This document shows, in pieces, positions 13,703 through 29,649 of a stretch of 64,000 nt of DNA. Within the stretch, counting starts at the first letter, position 1. Each line of letters begins with the position of its first letter. Origin of the DNA: Vermamoeba vermiformis (taxonomy: Eukaryota); the NCBI GenBank assembly GCA_045837725.1, contig JBEWZL010000076.1:186001-250000 (forward strand), in the 5' to 3' direction. Position numbers and translations under genes: made by a program. A model generated the notes under the pieces. The model saw only the letters and a program-made list of their open reading frames with translations. It had not been told where the DNA came from and did not search any database.

Positions 13703-16700
13703 TTATAGCAATGGCACGCCCCAATATTTGCATAAATCTTCTACTTTCTGTCCTTCTGTGGCAACGATTTTACGCAGAATGTCTTGAATGAGCGGTTTGA
13801 GCTGCGGATCTTCATGCAGCTTTTGGTGATGCGGGCTAATAGGGTATAAATATCATATTTATATCAAATGATATGAGTTTTACGTACTGTGATGGCGAAA
13901 TGAGCTTATAAAGGACAGGAAGAGCGTTGTGTATGTTTTGTTCGTTCCAGAAGAATCCTTCGACCTTGAAAGTCTTTAATAAGACATTCATATGATGAAT
14001 CCAAGTTGATGGATCTTCCACAAGATCAATAACTAACACGTAGAAGGCTAAACAGTGTTGGGTCAGTTCGAGAAGATCTCGGATTTGGATCTGGAACTTT
14101 TGCTTACGTGTCGCGGCCTCAGCTGAAAATTCGTTGCTGCAATCCTTTTCGAAGAAATTCAACGCATCTAAATATAGAAATGTTATTGCTGTTGAATTAC
14201 AGTCGTTTTCTTGTTGTTTTAAGAGTAACTTACCATCCAAATGCTTCAAAACGAATGATGGATAATGTAACGCAGCAGTACCTGATTAATATCGATATTA
14301 ATTGCTATGCAATTACCGTAAATAGCTCATTACCTATGAACTCGCTTCTTTCAATAAGAGTAACTACATTCGTTCTATCCTCAGGTTCAGCGTAATACTT
14401 GACTTTCCACGCCATCTCTAACAACGGCGCCTGTCATAATAAAATTAATAAAATTAAGTCAATGAATTTGAGAGGATATCTTTGACGCACCAGCTTTGGA
14501 TTTTGGAAAGCACCAGCCCTTAGCAAATCGCACACATATGTTATTGCCATGTACGACTGATTATCAACGTCAGATTTGAGCATTGGCTCCAACATATTAT
14601 AAAGAGTATCAGTTGGTTCGGTCGGATCTTCTGCACGGATCGCAAGTAGTCCCCATAGCTAAATGAATGTTAGAATCATATTAACCCTTAAATAACGGGG
14701 AAAGCGTGGCGTTGACAAAGTTTGACTTTCTACGAAATTTCATAAAGAATTTTTTCTCGGCTCTATCGATAAATTTTTCGAGCCAATTACCACGACTATA
14801 CTACATAGTTGTGTAAATAATATTAAAAATTAAAAATTATTGTATCGGTTGCCAAAAAATTTGATTTGACCGTCACGTTTAAAGGGTTAATTCATTATTC
14901 GTATTATTCTTACTGCCACTACGCCTTCATGAAGGGTATTATGAAGGATGTTGTTGATTGCCGCTCCGTCCTCATTACTATTAATCCAGGCTAATAGTTT
15001 CGCGACAACGTCCTTCGTCAAAAAGTTCTTCGATCCATTGTCCAACAGTGTTCTCAACGTCTATTAAGTATTATTAATGAGTCTCCTTTAAGAATGATTG
15101 CTTACCTTGTAGAAAGAATCGGTTACTACTTGACTTGATTGCAGATTAGTATGACGGAGAAAATCGACGACGGATGCCGCGATCTGATCAGCCACTTCGG
15201 CTGAGTTTGTCTGCTTTTGAGTCAGGAAACAGGCTGTCATCGCTGTGTAGAAATTAGGCAATCTGAGGTTGTCTAAATAAACGTCAAGTGTTAGCAAATA
15301 ATTATTTTCAGATATTCGGGATCCTGAATCCGTACTGTACTCTGTTTTAAGAAAATTTAAAATCTGAGGAAGGAGCTTCTTGACTTGTTCGTCATTATGC
15401 ATTCCCAACACTAATGTCGTCAGTAGATTCAACAGCTCTCGAGTTCCATATTGAGTAGGAAAATTATGCTCGCCCTCTTCGCTGTCATCATCGTCATCAG
15501 AGAATTCCATTCCATTCATTGGCATCATGCCACCTTTCATTTCTTTATCGTTATTATCATCCTCTTCCATCTCATCTTGCGACTTTTCGTCGAATTCATC
15601 GTCATCGTCTTCGTCGTCTTCTTCATCATCTTGATCCATCGAGTCAAAGTCAGACATTTCGTCCTCTTCAATATCTTCATTCGGATTGTTTTCGGCTCGT
15701 CGTTGAGCAATTCTTTTTCCAATTATGGAAATAAGCAATGAAAAGAAGTTCGGAGGAAGTTTCTTGTGCGGGATCATGTTCACTTCTTCGCCGAATTTCA
15801 ATAACAATATTTCGGTAGCTTCTTTAGGGTCTCTTTCGTACTCTTCTAGCGCCGCTTTGAGTAGTTCCGTATTTGAAAATGCATTTACACCAAGTAAAGT
15901 GCTATTGGCCGGATCTGTGATTGTAGAAATGACAAGTTCTTTGTACTATCAAATAATAACGTTAATATGGGCTTATAGCATCAATACGCATACTATATTA
16001 TATTAGAATGAAGGTTACCTCAGATACTTTTTCGCAGGCAATTGCTAGCTTGATGATCCACTTGTCCGCTTGGTCTTTTGCCGCTTTCGACTGCTCGCCC
16101 ATTTTTTTCAATTTATCGAACAGAATTTGTTGCTGTTCATCTGTTAATAGCCAAACGAACGTATTATCGTGAGTCAAAAATCTGTCCATCACTTTCACTT
16201 TCCACCTAAAAACGAATTAATAATGAGATAGTAATTTACGAATAATACGTACTTTTCTTCCAAATCGAGTAATACTTCTAACAAGAAACTGCAAGCTGCA
16301 TTCATTTTTGGATCTTCACGTGGCTTCGTCTAAAATTCAAAATAAGTATTGTTCTTATAATCAGTATAGAGCGAGAATCATACCGATTCGTCCTTAAGAA
16401 CTTCGTAATGATATAATATCAATGTTTTGTCTGTCGTTGGACCGGTTGGAGTTGGCACCGAATTCCACCTGAAAAAAATTCTTAATTGTCGCTGGAATTA
16501 TAATCAATATAACGTACCACTCAGCTAACTGTTTGACATCTGTAGGCTCGTGCAATAAATTTTGCAAATGATTCTTGAAGATGGCCAAGGTCAATGCCTC
16601 GCGGGCAGTTTTAGGCGGAGAAATTGATTTGAACGCATCCATGAACATGTCCATAATTGATGTAGTCTCCGTTTTTAATAGGACTATATATCATATCTTA

Positions 16701-23565: not shown

Positions 23566-25049
23566 ATGAGAGTTTATATCGCAGTATTGGTAGCCTTGTC
23601 GGCTGTGCTCGGTAGTTTCGCGTTACAAGTAAGTAGATCCGGATGTAGTACTTTAATTTTAACCAACTGAAAAAACGTACCATTTAGAAAATCGATGCTA
23701 GTAGCTTCCCCACCATTGCGCAAGAAACAGACGTCGCATTTCGCTACTCATCAGGAGGTGGAGATTTATTTGTAAAATCCTTTAATGATGGAATCAGAGT
23801 ATTTCGAGTTGATAGCTTTGGTCAAATATCGCATGTAGCGAATATCACCGCCGCAGAACAAACACCAGTATTCACCAACGGAAAATTAATTGCGTCAACA
23901 ACATCCAGCAAAGTTGATATTTGGAAATACTCTGGGGGCGTAGTTTCTCAAATGGGATCCATTACTATGTCTTCTAGTTACGACATGGGTGCAATTCTCT
24001 CGGATGATTCGATTTTACTCGTCGTCAACTCACTGACTGTCAATACATACATCTACAAAGACAACGTATGGACTCAAGTAAACATCTTCAATGCCAATAC
24101 CTCCATTTACACTACTGGTCTCACCCCAACTGTACAAATCACTGATCAATTCATCTTCGTATCTGGCGGAGTGTCCCAAGGCAGCGTAGATCGAAACCGA
24201 TTTTTCAGGATCTACACCAGAAATGCCGACTATTCTTGGACGTTAACGGATTCAGCGAACTTACAATTCCCAACTATCTATCAAGTTCCTACTCTCATGT
24301 ATAATGGCGCAGATACAGTTTTTGCTACATCCAAAGACGCGGATGTTGACGGAAGTGGCATCGTTGGAATAATCTATATTGTGACCAAGACAAATAACAA
24401 ATGGGTTTCTGCCCGAAATATCAGCGCCGTTTCACTTGGATACACCGGAGAAACAAGACTCGGCGAAATAGCTCGTATCGTTAATCAAAGAACTGCTGTG
24501 TTTAGTGCTACTACCGCGAAAAACGATCTCGGCAAGCCTAACGGAGCTGTCTTTTTGTTGAATCAAAACGCCGATGGCTCATGGAGCACTGAAGTGAGCT
24601 TCTATACCTCAGACTGGAATGTGTACTTTGGAAGAAATATCGACACTACCGCTAAGTACGTGGTGATATCTTCGCTGGCACTATACCCCGTCGATCAATT
24701 GCTACTCCAGACGTTGCCGAGTTGCCCACTATCTCCCATTGCCACCTCGTGCCCGGATGTACCCTTCAATAGCTCGGGCGCGACTTGCCAATTTGGAGAT
24801 GCCGATAAATACCAGTTTGTTACCAATCCAGAGTGTGGTGCATTCAGGGCGACTCAGTCCTCCGTTTCCACAAATGGTAATAATCTGACGTTGACCTACA
24901 CTTTTGAACGAGATCTCGTCGACCCGAAAACCTGCACTTTCAACATGGTTTGCAGCCTGCCCAAGAAGAACGGTGGATCGGCTCAATCGCTGTCGTTACT
25001 TGCTATGGTCTCCATCGTCGTTAGTGTTTTTTACGCAATTGTCATTTAA
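23566..25049 (+). CDS. Secreted/GPI- or TM-anchored beta-rich surface protein (FG-GAP/propeller-like + Cys domain), paralog 1
   Basis: Signal peptide MRVYIAVLVALSAVLGSFA, one intron after the signal exon, N-glycosylation sequons, hydrophobic C-terminus; shares VFTNGK, LSDD, NPxCGA and FERDxV with its neighbour. Confidence 0.8.
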
Positions 25050-25215
25050 ATTTTAAATAAATTAACTAAAGTAACTCCCACAGATCCAAATTAGTACATC
25101 GAAATTTTTGTTGCAGATCCGCAATACTTAACAACGAGATTAATCTCCGCGATCACGCCATTAATATCAAAATCAGCAAGCATCCAACCACCGTTTACTT
25201 TTAACTTTTGGGAAG

Positions 25216-26649
25216 ATGCTCAGATTCGGCAACTTACTTTGCTTGATTGTCATAGGCGTTCTTTTTGTTAGCGGCCAAGCTCAGGTTTGTTTTAACGGAG
25301 TAATAATTCATTTTAACAATTTAAATATACAGACAATTGGCCAGATCAAAAGAAAACTTATTGCCGACGTTTCTTACATTGACGGATTAGCAGCAGCTAA
25401 GGATGTGCTTGTTGTAAATACGCGGGCGGCCATCAACGTTTACAGAATGCTTTCAGGAAAATATCAATTCGTAGCTTTTGATAATAGCACCGATTACCAG
25501 CGCAAAGAGGTTTTCACAAACGGAAAATGGATTGGATTCATTGACTACTCCGAAGTTACTCTAATTCAACTTTTTCCTAATAATACATTATCAGCACCAG
25601 TAATTGTGCAGGCCAAAGCTATTACCTTGCTTTCGGACGACACCTTGATTGCACTCAATTCGTCTCACGTTCTCAGTTACAAATTTTCCAACAATCAATG
25701 GCAACTGATCAGCAGTTTTGCACCTGGTTTTTTGCCTTATTCAGGTACCCCCGCTCAAGACATAGACGCGAAGGAAAATTCTATCGTTTTGAAGCAACAG
25801 TTGGACGGTGTAACGGCGATCTCGATCTACAAGCGCCAACCGGATCTCTCGTATCTCAAGAGCGAGACTTTTAATATTTCTGGAAGTACTAGCAGCAATA
25901 TACTTTATAACGACGTAGACACCATATTTTACAATCTAATCTATGAACAAAATGGTAATGGTTTCGAAGGCACGATCAATATTTTCAGCAAAGTCAATGG
26001 CTCGTGGAGTTTTACCCAGAAAATTAATGGATCGAACGTGAATGGTCTGATTGCCCCTTCTAGTCTTGGCTGGAGACGCGTGCTGGTCAATCCAAACGCC
26101 GTTCTGTTTACTGCTCACAGAGAATTCGAGTCCAAGATTAAAGCCCAAGGACGTCTGTTGTTATTGACTCGCGAAAATGGAGTTTGGCAACCGAAGTTGG
26201 TTTTGTACGCCAACTCGTACAATTCTCAACTAGGTGACGCCCCAGCGGTTGCGGTCAACGATTACGACATGTTTGCGGTCTTGAACACCTTGAATTCAAA
26301 CCAATGGAATGTTTTGGGATTGAACGCATGTGCTCACGTGCCGATCAACGTGACGTGTGATGCGGGAGCCGTCCAAGTCAAAGATTGCAGCTCTGCGGTC
26401 TCTTTGGCCTCATACTATCGAATCAACAATCCTCAATGTGGTGCACTTGACGTCATGCAAAATCTAACCAAGGCAGCTGGCTCTTCCATAACGACTAGCT
26501 TCACTTTTGAACGAGACTTTGTCCCTTCTACTTCATGCTCCATTGAAGTGCAGTGTGCAAACCTTAATAAGGTGGTTAGCGGATCTAGCACTACGGCACT
26601 CTCTACCGCCGCTGCTATTCTTATGGTCGTTCTTTTGTTAGTGTTTTAA
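25216..26649 (+). CDS. Secreted/GPI- or TM-anchored beta-rich surface protein, paralog 2 (in-frame 48-nt intron 25285-25332 likely)
   Basis: Signal peptide, same conserved blocks as paralog 1, C-terminal SGSSTTALSTAAAILMVVLLLVF. Confidence 0.8.
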   Translation: MLRFGNLLCLIVIGVLFVSGQAQVCFNGVIIHFNNLNIQTIGQIKRKLIADVSYIDGLAAAKDVLVVNTRAAINVYRMLSGKYQFVAFDNSTDYQRKEVFTNGKWIGFIDYSEVTLIQLFPNNTLSAPVIVQAKAITLLSDDTLIALNSSHVLSYKFSNNQWQLISSFAPGFLPYSGTPAQDIDAKENSIVLKQQLDGVTAISIYKRQPDLSYLKSETFNISGSTSSNILYNDVDTIFYNLIYEQNGNGFEGTINIFSKVNGSWSFTQKINGSNVNGLIAPSSLGWRRVLVNPNAVLFTAHREFESKIKAQGRLLLLTRENGVWQPKLVLYANSYNSQLGDAPAVAVNDYDMFAVLNTLNSNQWNVLGLNACAHVPINVTCDAGAVQVKDCSSAVSLASYYRINNPQCGALDVMQNLTKAAGSSITTSFTFERDFVPSTSCSIEVQCANLNKVVSGSSTTALSTAAAILMVVLLLVF

Positions 26650-26786
26650 ATGAAATAAACAGAATTAGTTAAATTCAATAATGCATTGATTTTGATAAAA
26701 GATTAGTCGTTTTATTACCTTCGCAGTTCTCGACAATATTACTTGTGAGCGCTACAAAAATACAAGAATCGTTAATATGAGCTCAT

Positions 26787-28301
26787 TTAGATGCGAATTC
26801 GCTTCATAATGTCGCTGCCTCCAGGAGTATTTTGCCATAAAGTGAGCACAAACTTGAGATCTGCCGGTGTAATTTCTTTGCGCGCGTAGAGCTGAGCCAT
26901 TTTCAACGCAGATTCGACGAGTTGCGAAGTGAATTCTTCAGCGGAGGCTTGCATGGCATCAAGGGCACTCTCTTGAATAGCCCATTCATTCTCATCTTCC
27001 TCGTCGTCTTCATCACCGTCTTCTTCGTCATTTGCATCGTCTTCTTCTTCTTCGTCTTCGTCCTCTTGTGGCTCAACAACAGCGTCAGCAATGCGACGGA
27101 AAGCAACAGAATCGATCTTGAATCGCGACTCTTTGACCTCTTCTTCGTTCTCAGCCTCGTCGTTGGTCTTGTTCAGCGCGTCTTCTTCGTCTTCAGACTC
27201 GCTCTCGTCAGCTTCTTCAGCGTCATTTTCCTCATCCACATCCGCAGCGAGGTCTTCACCAAAGTTCTCATCGTCTTCGTCTTCATCTTCTTCAGGCATA
27301 TCAACCTCGCTGGGCCAGTACATGGTCACGCCGAGCAGTTTGAAGGCCTCGAGAATGTTGTGCAGCAAAACGACGCCGCGTTGTCTGTGTTGTGCGTGAA
27401 CGAGAGCAGCATCAGCAATGACTTTGATGTACTTCTCGAAGACATTGCGAAGGTAGTCTATATTAAGCATTGGTATTAGTATATGAAATGAAGGTACGAG
27501 GTGTAACGAGCTTTTCGGATCACATCCAGGACTTACCAACAGAGTCCTTAGTCAACTTGACTTCAGTGCCAGCAGCGTGGTGTTGGAAGATGCTCTCGAT
27601 ACCAGCACGAACCTTATTCTCGGTCTCTTCAATCTCCTTCGTCAACTCATCGTAGACAGATTTGGTTTGTTGATCCTAAATATGACCGTTAGAACCTTGA
27701 TTTAAATACCACCGATGTAATATCGCATCACTCCAGCTTATTATGATATTACTTACTTGGTCGATCAAAGCGCTGTAAGCAGAGATAACACCAAAAGTTT
27801 TCTTTTCGGAGTTGCCCATCTTCGAAAGAGCTTCGTCAGCGCTAGCAAGACCAAGCTCCTTAGCGAGTTGCAAGGCTTCTTGAGGCTCAGCACCATCAGT
27901 GACCTCGAAGTTGGTCTCTTCTGATTGCAAACCAAAGTCGTCAGCTTCCTCATCGACTAAAGGTGCGTTGAGATCGTCTTCGTAGAGACCAACGACCTCG
28001 TCTTCCTCTTCAATGTCATCGACCTGCTCTTGGTTCTCCTTGCCATCAAGGTCCTTCATAGCAATATCTACAGGCTTCTTTTCGAGAATTGAAGGAACAA
28101 CTTGCGCGTTGAGATCGACCGGGGCAAAAGGAATAACAGTCGGTGTAATACGCTGTTTCTTCGTAGCAGCGCCTTCGACGGCATTCTAGGTATTATATTG
28201 TTAATATTAGAAGAAGCCTTAAATGCTGAAGAACGGAAATTTGAATTGTGAATCCGTTCACTTACCTCATCGCGAACTCTCTTGCCTAAAGTAGTGCTCA
28301 T
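26787..28301 (-). CDS. Acidic fused H4-H3 histone-fold doublet protein (~424 aa; exons 28301-28266, 28185-27757, 27675-27537, 27457-26787)
   Basis: H4-like DYLRNVFEKYIKVIADAALVHAQHRQRGVVLLHNILEAFKLLGVTMY; H3-like AFRRIADAVV...AIQESALDAMQASAEEFTSQLVESALKMAQLYARKEITPADLKFVL; splice phases are consistent. Confidence 0.85.
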
Positions 28302-28595
28302 TTTGTATTCAAGGCGAATAAGATGCAGCTTGTTGTGGTACTTCGTCTAAAAATTGATGTTAAAGAAATCAGAATGCAGTTTGTAACGGATAAAATTTTG
28401 TGGCCCTACGAAATTTCAAAAAAAATGGGCGCGAAAAACTAACTTACTCCGGAGTCATTCTTGAACCATACCAACTGTTTCTTGGTATATCGCATTGCTA
28501 CGCGAATACGTAGATCTACTAATGTGACTTTTGAGGCTCATCGAAGGTAGATCGATTGAGTTGCAGTTTGGATGCGGTACACATGATTTGTGCAC

Positions 28596-29649
28596 TTAAT
28601 GTTGATCTTCTAATGGTCCAGGACAGTTATTGATAACGTCCTCTAGCGAATCATACTGCGTGCCACAAAAGTAGCAATAAAGATGCTCAGATCTAAGGTA
28701 GTTGAGCACAGTCGCCAACTTTTCTTCTTTCTAAAACAATCAATATTAGCCAATCAAATTCGGTACCATATATGATTTAAAGTCAATCAATTCTTCACTT
28801 CTATAGTAGCGTAAATAAGCTACCTTTATGAGATCTACTTACATCATCAATCGTGAGCGAACGAACCCATCCGCCAATTTTGATTTCTTCGCCGTCCTCG
28901 TTGATTTTATGAGCTTCATATTCCTTCAATACAGTATTATTCTCCAACGGAATATTCTTAGCTTCGTCTAATTGCTGCGAAATGTTTATGCAGTCGGTGA
29001 GTTGCTTTTGAAGCTTTTTATCATCGAACGCGGATCTTCTACGCTCTTTGAAACTAGTCTCAATTCTTTGGCGCTTGACTTGCGTAAATACCTCCGCTTG
29101 TTCTTGTTCCTCGAGTACTCCTAAGCCAACTCGTCCTACGAAGAAAGTTTCAGATCTACTACAAAGCCACATTAATAATCGTTAATTAATACCTTCTCGA
29201 ACTTTAACGGCTAATGGCTCAACAAGGCCTTTGTCTTTGTTTGTTTTACCAAGCGCAGTTCCTTTCCTGTCACTTCGCTTAGTACCATTTGATTTTTATT
29301 TATTAATATTATTTACTTACTGATAGCCCATACTTGCGAGTAATTTGAATCCTACGTGTCCAAAATAATAAGAAATATTGGAGAAATAAAGTAAAAATTA
29401 GTATCAATTACCAATATTCGATTCTGGGATCGGAGTAGCCAAACCCTTCTCTAATGTTTCTTTTTGTACTACTTTTTGAGGTTTTGGTGGTTCTGGATGC
29501 TTTCTTTTGCGATTGATTTTGGATCGACCTGACGCCTTGTCTTCCTCTGCTTGCCGTCTCTCAAGCTCCTTCAAGAATGACTCGGACATATAATCTTCTT
29601 CCTCGTCATCTTGGTGCTTGGGCTCGCTCGAATTCTTGTTGTGCTCCAT
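28596..29649 (-). CDS. GPATCH11: G-patch domain protein 11 (G-patch + DUF4187)
   Basis: EEEDYMSESFL; SNIGFKLLASMGY...LGK...GLVEP; C-terminal YLRSEHLYCYFCGTQYDSLEDVINNCPG. Confidence 0.88.

Follow-up and report, generated by a model that had tools for sequence, protein, structure and literature searches.

An acidic Vermamoeba vermiformis protein with H4-like and H3-like histone folds in one chain: a possible mimic of the H3-H4 dimer

Fused H4-H3 histones have until now been a hallmark of giant viruses. A 64,000-nucleotide (nt) stretch of the genome of the amoeba Vermamoeba vermiformis (GenBank assembly GCA_045837725.1, contig JBEWZL010000076.1, positions 186,001 to 250,000 of the forward strand), here called the window, holds a minus-strand gene at 28301..26787 (window positions throughout) whose product was originally predicted to combine an H4-like and an H3-like histone fold in a single, very acidic chain. 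Is this protein a true H4-H3 doublet, does the gene belong to the amoeba or to a virus, and what might such a histone pair do if it does not wrap DNA? The gene model has four exons and three introns, with a start ATG at 28301 and a stop TAA at 26789-26787 on the minus strand; its 1275-nt coding sequence encodes 424 amino acids (aa), of which 119 are Asp or Glu and 39 are Lys or Arg, and the calculated isoelectric point (pI) is 4.05. The analysis below makes the H4-then-H3 identity close to certain and places the gene in the amoeba. We propose, with a probability of roughly 0.45, that the protein may mimic the H3-H4 dimer in the nucleus and bind histones or the proteins that handle them.

Identity and predicted structure of the two folds

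We used P0006, a 419-aa protein from a public collection that is colinear with the window product (367 of 425 alignment columns identical), as the query for an exhaustive phmmer search of 1.84 billion representative proteins; this search identified 35 proteins at E≤1e-3 and 19 at E≤1e-10. A 31-row family alignment (A1), an 18-row alignment of the second fold (A2) and a 12-row alignment of the first fold (A4, whose rows are members other than those used for A2) were used as profiles against the PDB.

Single sequences were compared with Pfam and the PDB as well. The exon 4 product, which carries alpha2-alpha3 of the first fold and the whole of the second, exceeded the Pfam cut-offs for Histone (29.9 bits; cut-off 26.4), CBFD_NFYB_HMF (28.4; cut-off 21.4) and Bromo_TP (27.5; cut-off 24.6), and Pfam Histone was detected in 15 of the 31 family members. 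In the PDB the same product had seven matches at E≤10, all of them at chance level; the best were the Marseillevirus and Melbournevirus H4-H3 doublets, which aligned to the second fold at E 0.71-1.3, and the first fold aligned to H4 at E 2.7. Single family members reached H4 only at E 0.004-0.12.

The profiles assigned each fold to a core histone. A1 aligned to H4 residues 46-98 at E 1.1e-8. All but three of its best 60 PDB rows were H4, the others being a tandem H2B chain and a pair of engineered Cse4-Scm3-H4 constructs. The independent A4 profile also aligned to H4 (E 1.9e-8), which occupied the best 60 of 127 matches at 37.3 to 29.8 bits; no viral doublet appeared in the best 60 rows of either profile. 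The invariant Gly and Tyr of the first fold align to H4 residues 94 and 98, within the C-terminal G-R-x-x-Y motif. For the second fold, A2 aligned to H3/CenH3 over alpha1-alpha3 (H3 66-130) at 32-37 bits (E 3e-8 to 8e-7), and CENP-A and Cse4 scored similarly to H3, whereas the H3 part of the Melbournevirus doublet scored 26 bits.

Based on these matches, an H4-like fold followed by an H3-like fold in one chain is close to certain, as the original prediction had it. That prediction had also read Ala in place of H3 Arg83 and Leu in place of H3 His113, and the hidden Markov model register of the A2 profile places the same residues at the H3-83 and H3-113 equivalents of the window protein. The profiles did not assign the protein to an Spt3- or TAF-type double fold, an assignment that would speak against an H4-H3 doublet; H4 and H3 scored far better.

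AlphaFold2 models were made for two members, P0006 and the short-linker P0019, each with the family alignment. The P0006 model had a mean pLDDT (predicted local distance difference test) of 66, most of both folds being covered by ten-residue blocks that scored 85-95, and the P0019 model had a mean pLDDT of 81.5 and a predicted template modelling score of 0.68. In both, three short helices are followed by a 32-residue helix that ends as alpha1, then alpha2, alpha3, the linker, alpha1-alpha3 of the second fold and a short C-terminal helix; the predicted secondary structure of each model thus holds two complete histone folds (alpha1-L1-alpha2-L2-alpha3) in one polypeptide. In the P0006 model, the helix before alpha1 of the second fold reached a pLDDT of only ~46-55.

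Foldseek searches of the PDB aligned both models across both folds to single-chain doublets, over 146-260 columns and with target-normalised template modelling (TM) scores of 0.58-0.74. The top matches for both were Melbournevirus doublets (9CVT, 7N8N; target-normalised TM 0.64-0.74), followed by engineered H2B-H2A chains, by the histone domain of Sos and by HMk, the histone of Methanopyrus. The best matches in a library of predicted viral structures (E 2e-6 to 2e-5) were doublets of the H4-H3 type from an iridovirus, a pithovirus and marseilleviruses. These superpositions suggest that the two folds pair within the chain as an H3-H4-like pseudodimer, the intramolecular handshake that had been expected of an AlphaFold model, and together with the profile matches they bear out the structural core of the original claim, a single-chain, H4-then-H3 pseudodimer. 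A two-copy complex prediction for P0006 residues 105-419 (score 0.21, mark 0.32) was counted neither for nor against dimerisation.

The gene, its transcripts and its family

The exon structure, on the minus strand throughout, is as follows.

28266..28301, minus strand: exon 1, 12 codons including the start; from the gene model, with the joint 28185>28266 in RNA reads
28186..28265, minus strand: intron 1, 80 nt, GTAAGT..AG; skipped at that joint by 15 (X21) and 30 (X23) reads, with depth 0 in bin 28200-28263
27757..28185, minus strand: exon 2, 143 codons, encoding the acidic N-terminal stretch as well as conserved helices one to three; family profile positions 12-136
27676..27756, minus strand: intron 2, 81 nt, GTAAGT..AG; spliced exactly in X2 contig record 11 and skipped by X21 and X23 reads, with depth ~0 in bin 27688-27751
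27537..27675, minus strand: exon 3, encoding the long helix that ends as alpha1 and the L1 loop of the H4-like fold, and ending in codon phase 1; family profile positions 137-178
27458..27536, minus strand: intron 3, 79 nt, GTAAGT..AG, which interrupts the H4-like fold and splits a codon in phase 1; skipped by 40 (X21) and 28 (X23) reads at the joint 27457>27537 and by the X2 contig
26787..27457, minus strand: exon 4 with the stop codon (26787-26789), encoding alpha2-alpha3 of the first fold, the acidic linker and the whole second fold; Pfam Histone, family profile positions 176-349

Evidence for splicing came from raw RNA sequencing reads (X21, X23) of a relative 90-95% alike, judged by its sequence to be a related strain or species, and from two contig sets, over 26600-28500. 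Intron 2 was skipped in 7 (X21) and 21 (X23) reads at 27669>27756, a joint that encloses five diverged letters; one X2 contig (record 11) has introns 2 and 3 spliced out exactly. Read depth was ~0 (0 to 0.09) in bins inside introns 1 and 2, and the removal of intron 3 rests on the joints because its depth bins overlap exons. P0006 itself sits on a 1375-nt contig, which is too short for the introns and so looks like a transcript. All three introns are therefore removed in the relative's RNA and the exons are co-transcribed, in agreement with the four exons splicing in phase to ~424 aa that had been proposed. An error of the gene model as the source of the fusion was excluded, since the exon joints are present in RNA reads and in a spliced contig, and since other species have the same arrangement, seen in transcript-sized contigs and in transcriptome proteins of five named species. 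The gene is real, spliced, expressed and cellular.

Codon position 3 accounts for 32 of the 40 differences listed (of 123) that separate the relative's reads from the window, as is typical when purifying selection acts on a protein. The reads lose alignment in both polyacidic stretches (26984-27047 and 27233-27265), with depth falling to 0.2-3.8 within 26984-27047 and loose ends at 27049, 27233 and 27265; this loss suggests that the acidic insert and the linker diverge by indels much faster than the folds do.

The layout of the 424-aa product, from the N-terminus, is given below.

28150..28283, minus strand: bipartite basic clusters resembling a nuclear localisation signal (NLS; KRVR...KKQR), residues 7-24, spanning intron 1; sequence pattern only
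27892..28056, minus strand: acidic, predicted disordered N-terminal region, residues 56-110, with a conserved D-D-F-G-x-Q-S-E-E motif; alignment, and pLDDT <50 up to residue 105 of P0006
27757..27891, minus strand: conserved N-terminal helical module of three helices, residues 111-155, consensus EA.E.A..L.L.S...AL..VG; alignment A1 and AlphaFold2
27315..27672, minus strand: H4-like fold, residues 157-249, with long alpha1, alpha2, alpha3 and a G-x-x-x-Y-W tail, and containing intron 3; H4 profile matches and AlphaFold2
27129..27314, minus strand: acidic linker between the folds, 62 aa long (residues 250-311) and with a net charge of -33; sequence count
26790..27128, minus strand: H3-like fold and C-terminal tail, residues 312-424; A2 profile on H3/CenH3, Pfam Histone and CBFD_NFYB_HMF, AlphaFold2
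26985..27074, minus strand: lineage-specific acidic insert of 30 aa (residues 330-359) with a net charge of -24, in L1 of the H3-like fold; alignments and charge count

The linker matches the ~60-residue Asp/Glu linker described at the outset. A conserved helical module upstream of the first fold (window residues 111-188) had been overlooked. Its helices were predicted at residues 112-123, 129-135 and 140-156 of P0006 and at 42-52, 58-64 and 69-81 of P0019, and it had no Pfam match in scans of entire exon products and entire family members. The window protein has no basic tail, as had been claimed; the acidic region and helical module precede the first fold and the acidic linker precedes the second. 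The NLS-like KRVR...KKQR of the original prediction looks like a bipartite signal at residues 7-24. Similar clusters occur in P0006, P0056, P0039 and both Rhizamoeba proteins, and inspection for this sequence pattern found none in the Centramoebida-type clade.

Twenty clusters from the family were looked up and six had names: Balamuthia mandrillaris, Dracoamoeba jomungandri, Luapeleamoeba hula, Pellita catalonica and Rhizamoeba saxonica (two clusters). All five named species are Amoebozoa, four from Discosea and one from Tubulinea. Transcriptome assemblies supplied five of the six named clusters, which indicates that the family is transcribed in several species. A region search with P0013 yielded one further member, P0063; a profile search with A2, limited to 7995 longer candidates, found no new family member, and the family searches made here found none in Dictyostelium. 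On this sampling the family appears small and has so far been seen only in Amoebozoa. At NCBI, one record (P0007) is assigned to the cyanobacterium Brasilonema sp. CT11; that label is probably wrong and due to eukaryotic contamination of a bacterial assembly. The Balamuthia member P0013 is labelled "putative transport and golgi organization protein 1", which looks like an artefact of the acidic run. Recognition of the family corrects both database labels.

The rows of A1 share an acidic N-terminal region, a motif F-G-E-Q-S-x-E, the helical segment EA.E.A..L.L.S...AL..VG, a Y-E-x-L-T-x-E-I helix leading into the first fold and an end motif L-G-R-P-x-Y-W. The acidic linker and second fold follow, and one large group has a C-terminal L-W-x-x-x-P-G...L..R tail. 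Exons 2, 3 and 4 align to successive parts of the family profile (12-136, 137-178 and 176-349), and a profile scan of the 64-kb window found no other family match and no other histone fold. A maximum-likelihood tree of 28 rows, which excluded the fragmentary A1 rows P0026, P0034, P0041, P0046 and P0012, recovered a short-linker clade with both Rhizamoeba proteins (12 rows, support 100/99) and a Centramoebida-type clade of 9 rows (support 99/99) in which all four named Discosea fall; the window protein groups with P0006 (100/100), apart from both.

A motif x-E-N-x-x-P was observed in the first 20 residues of P0013-P0018, P0026, P0040, P0041 and P0063, reading K-E-N in P0015, P0017 and P0063; in the window protein, residues 11-13 are D-E-N and residues 61-63 are K-E-N. 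The motif resembles a KEN-box degron, which would imply turnover controlled by the cell cycle.

The last exon of the upstream neighbour (28599-28730, minus strand) encodes a DUF4187 domain (PF13821, E 2.5e-19), which we take to be the C-terminal domain of eukaryotic G-patch proteins; the stop codon of that gene lies ~295 nt upstream of the doublet's start codon. Downstream are two tandem intron-less open reading frames, 23688-25046 (plus strand, 453 aa) and 25165-26646 (plus strand, 494 aa), which are paralogues (26% identity, E 2e-28) with a hydrophobic C-terminal end and no Pfam match, and which may represent a family of surface proteins peculiar to this lineage. None of eight open frames (126-494 aa) scanned in the window rose above a Pfam family cut-off, and the region appears to be rich in lineage-specific or heavily intron-split genes. 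A further 285-aa frame at 15091-15945 (minus strand) with an acidic run had sub-threshold Pfam matches only (Nop14, DUF2457, CDC45) and is probably low in complexity.

Spliced introns, cellular neighbours, a tree that follows taxonomy and better scores on cellular H4 and H3 together favour an old cellular gene, and the spread of the family over two amoebozoan phyla, with a tree that separates the named Discosea from Tubulinea, upholds the claim that the protein is host-encoded. The suggestion that it was domesticated from a virus gains nothing from the profile searches, in which the second fold scored higher on cellular than on viral H3 and the first fold had no viral doublet in its best 60 rows. 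Viral contigs scanned with P0006, P0017 and P0027 yielded no relative, which is weak evidence given that the method finds close relatives only. An origin shared with the viral doublets, which evolve fast, is compatible with these data.

Charge, proposed function and rival explanations

Over its full length the protein carries a net negative charge in each of the 31 A1 rows (-12 to -79). The first fold has a net charge of +1 to -9, and the second fold after L1 one of +4 to -6. In the 27 rows that reach the second fold (the remaining four are fragments that end in or before the linker), the linker is 11-82 aa long and net negative (-4 to -38). The acidic L1 insert occurs only in the window's clade and, longer, in P0011, whereas the other 24 rows that reach the second fold have 3-4 residues there. 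Acidity thus appears to be a trait of the family and the L1 insert a trait of a lineage. The original prediction was right that an acidic run is present in L1 (30 aa at net -24), but it gave the run too much weight; the interpretation as a whole is partly supported, with its structural part holding and its functional options (an H2A-H2B chaperone, a histone-chaperone decoy or a dominant-negative against giant-virus nucleosomes) being speculative.

Core H3 has a basic tail, an alphaN helix, basic alpha1 DNA contacts and a His113 in the H3-H3' four-helix bundle. The amoeba family lacks the basic tail, the basic alpha1 contacts and His113, with the acidic linker in the place of the tail, and its H3-113 equivalent is Leu, Phe or Tyr and not His. 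The basic N-terminal tail and basic L2 DNA-contact residues of core H4 are absent as well. In the profile registers, Asp or Glu is conserved at the equivalents of H3 63 and 72 and of H4 77 and 78 (Asp and Glu, respectively, at the last two), all of which are presumably DNA contacts in the nucleosome. Because these acidic residues are conserved and both folds are neutral to acidic, DNA wrapping seems very unlikely for the whole family; that this protein does not wrap DNA is therefore probable, as had been suspected.

The protein may act as a nuclear, protein-binding look-alike of H3-H4 and not as a DNA wrapper. Through its acidic arms and the surfaces of its histone folds it would bind basic chromatin proteins, which would be either histones in free form (H2A-H2B, H3-H4) or factors normally recognising H3-H4, and the outcome would be a chaperone, a buffer or an adaptor. 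Nuclear location, absence of DNA wrapping and histone binding are the parts of this proposal that we infer, and binding to histones or their handlers is by itself a tentative proposition, somewhat short of an even chance.

Several points weigh against this proposal. NLS-like clusters occur in part of the family only, with none found in Centramoebida-type members, so nuclear location is not secured family-wide. The N-terminal module, for which there is no known match, may point to a quite different partner, and acidic disordered arms are common in many kinds of protein besides histone chaperones. The handshake was derived from Foldseek alignments to doublet chains, the output of the models being per-residue confidence and secondary structure.

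Two rivals draw on other cellular histone-fold complexes. The protein could belong, as a structural subunit, to a complex acting in transcription or on chromatin, as TAF6-TAF9 or Spt3 do in TFIID and SAGA; the doublet would then serve as scaffold, while the acidic arms would mediate interactions or resemble activation regions. The N-terminal helical module would suit docking into such a complex, and there are weak TAF-type Pfam matches (10 of 31 members for Bromo_TP, 4 for TFIID_20kDa and 1 for TFIID-18kDa), but these are generic to the histone-fold clan and are not accompanied by a HEAT or other TAF-specific domain. Two SAGA chains, which we take to be Spt3, stand at ranks 45 and 49 of a structure search (E 0.11-0.15); the scores of both folds on H4 and H3, however, are far above those on any TAF, and no TAF chain occurs in the best 60 rows of the A1, A2 and A4 searches, which leaves this explanation unlikely. 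A fused kinetochore linker of the CENP-T/CENP-W type, in which a motif-bearing N-terminal arm would recruit the outer kinetochore and the histone-fold pair would anchor it, fares worse. A disordered arm with motifs followed by histone folds does resemble the layout of CENP-T, the nearest ESM Atlas clusters for P0006 are fungal CENP-T (0.75-0.78, taken as a lead only), and Pfam CENP-T_C matches 3 of 31 members (best E 1.5e-4). CENP-T-W binds DNA, however, and the amoeba folds are acidic; CENP-T_C (PF15511) stays below its cut-off (19.5 vs 28.1 bits), and the best 60 PDB rows for A1, A2 and A4 hold no CENP-T or CENP-W. In favour of a linker, a review (PMC9252888) gives CENP-C and CENP-T-W as not identified in Dictyostelium; against it, the searches made here found no member of the present family there. 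We regard a kinetochore linker as very improbable.

The other rivals take the viral doublets as their starting point. A viral doublet might have been captured by an early amoeba, or a host doublet might be ancestral to the viral ones, and the protein might now be a tool or relic of conflict with giant viruses, acting as a decoy or dominant-negative. It shares the H4-then-H3 order of the Marseilleviridae, and viral doublets lead both the structural searches and, at E 0.7-1.3 only, the single-sequence PDB matches of exon 4; for P0013 (whole protein), the nearest ESM Atlas clusters are Nucleocytoviricota histones (0.76-0.77, likewise a lead only). Foldseek, however, sees any two single-chain doublets as alike, and H4-H3 is one of only two possible orders. 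The higher scores on cellular H3, the lack of viral doublets in the best 60 rows for the first fold, three spliceosomal introns, cellular neighbours, a tree tracking amoebozoan taxonomy and the three queries that found no close relative in viral contigs also count against a viral-conflict role, which we consider improbable. A DNA-packaging variant that forms nucleosome- or tetrasome-like particles, as the viral doublets do, is the natural alternative for two folds that are true relatives of H4 and H3, and many members keep Arg at the H3-116 and Asp at the H3-123 equivalent. Against packaging stand the negative charge in every row, the acidic H3-63, H3-72, H4-77 and H4-78 equivalents, the want of basic tails and the replacement of His113; in the window's clade, a 30-residue acidic loop (-24) also occupies L1, which contacts DNA in nucleosomes. 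Packaging is extremely unlikely.

Introns, neighbours and tree point to an old host gene, and lobose amoebae include known hosts of histone-doublet viruses. One bolder scenario, a long shot in our view, would have amoebae carry an H4-H3 doublet since before the split of Discosea and Tubulinea, with a single fusion shared with the viral doublets (in either direction) and a host copy whose charge was reversed, making it a mimic that titrates histone chaperones or caps dimers and so controls host, and possibly viral, nucleosome assembly.

Comparison with known systems

Marseilleviridae histone doublets are basic proteins. Like them (PDB 7N8N, 9CVT, 7LV8), the amoeba protein has an H4-like and then an H3-like fold joined by a linker in one chain, and the amoeba second-fold profile aligns the Melbournevirus H3 part over alpha1-alpha3 (26 bits). 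The viral doublets are described as forming nucleosome-like particles, whereas the amoeba protein has a pI of 4.05 and neutral to acidic folds. The amoeba family also differs from them in its N-terminal helical module, polyacidic arms, spliceosomal introns and cellular neighbourhood, and in scoring higher on cellular H4 and H3. Canonical H4 (46-98) and H3/CenH3 (66-130) are the best sequence relatives of the two folds; in contrast to canonical histones, the amoeba folds are fused, lack basic tails, have lost or reversed the charge at DNA-contact equivalents and do not have His at the 113 equivalent.

SPT3 is TAF11/13-like, and membership of the SPT3/TAF11-TAF13 class was rejected: PF02269 was found in 1 of 31 members, at E 0.0019, and the presumed Spt3 chains reached ranks 45 and 49 only. 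CENP-T membership was rejected on the sub-threshold PF15511 score, with 3 of 31 members at E≤0.01. Among cellular double-histone-fold classes, Table 1 of a 2026 review (PMC13088155) lists the Methanopyrus/HMk and Halobacteria type, the Sos H domain, the ABTB2 type, SPT3, a bacterial type and animal HSIH-DHF. These are intramolecular pseudodimers, and Sos (1Q9C), HMk (1F1E) and bacterial 1WWI are among the structural matches of the amoeba models. In the same source, the Sos and ABTB2 classes are H2A/H2B-like and HSIH-DHF is animal, with at least 60% identity to histones. The amoeba family is H4/H3-like, very divergent, acidic and amoebozoan, and it is missing from that table. HSIH-DHF membership was rejected, as single members reach H4 only at E 0.004-0.12 and exon 4 reaches no PDB histone below E 0.7.

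Mostly animal H3/H4 doublets and multiplets are described in a paper of 2026 (PMC13520046), where the doublets of Table 1 have at least 88% identity to a joined H3-H4 query and the sequences in the tree have at least 75% identity to one such doublet. The cellular doublets published in these two sources are thus either unrelated classes (Sos, ABTB2, SPT3; PMC13088155) or near-identical histone fusions in animal gene models (PMC13520046). Full-text literature searches yielded no cellular acidic H4-H3 doublet in amoebae, although tables S3 and S4 of PMC13520046 (matches of an H4-H3 chimeric query) might list relatives.

With nucleoplasmin, NAP1 and POLE3-POLE4, the amoeba protein shares polyacidic disordered arms beside a folded core, a functional analogy only. 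POLE3-POLE4 is a histone-fold chaperone; nucleoplasmin and NAP1 have no sequence or fold relation to the amoeba protein. The acidic disordered regions of Npm2 and Nap1 are described in PMC10987829 as histone binders that mimic DNA.

Set beside these systems, the amoeba protein is an H4-H3-type double histone fold. It is not a member of H3, H4, CENP-T or SPT3, and probably not of the viral doublet family. It is a candidate new histone-handling factor and a cellular reference point for the origin of the viral doublets, and, if the analogy with acidic chaperones holds, it would be a natural case of a histone pair turned from a DNA binder into an apparent protein-binding mimic.

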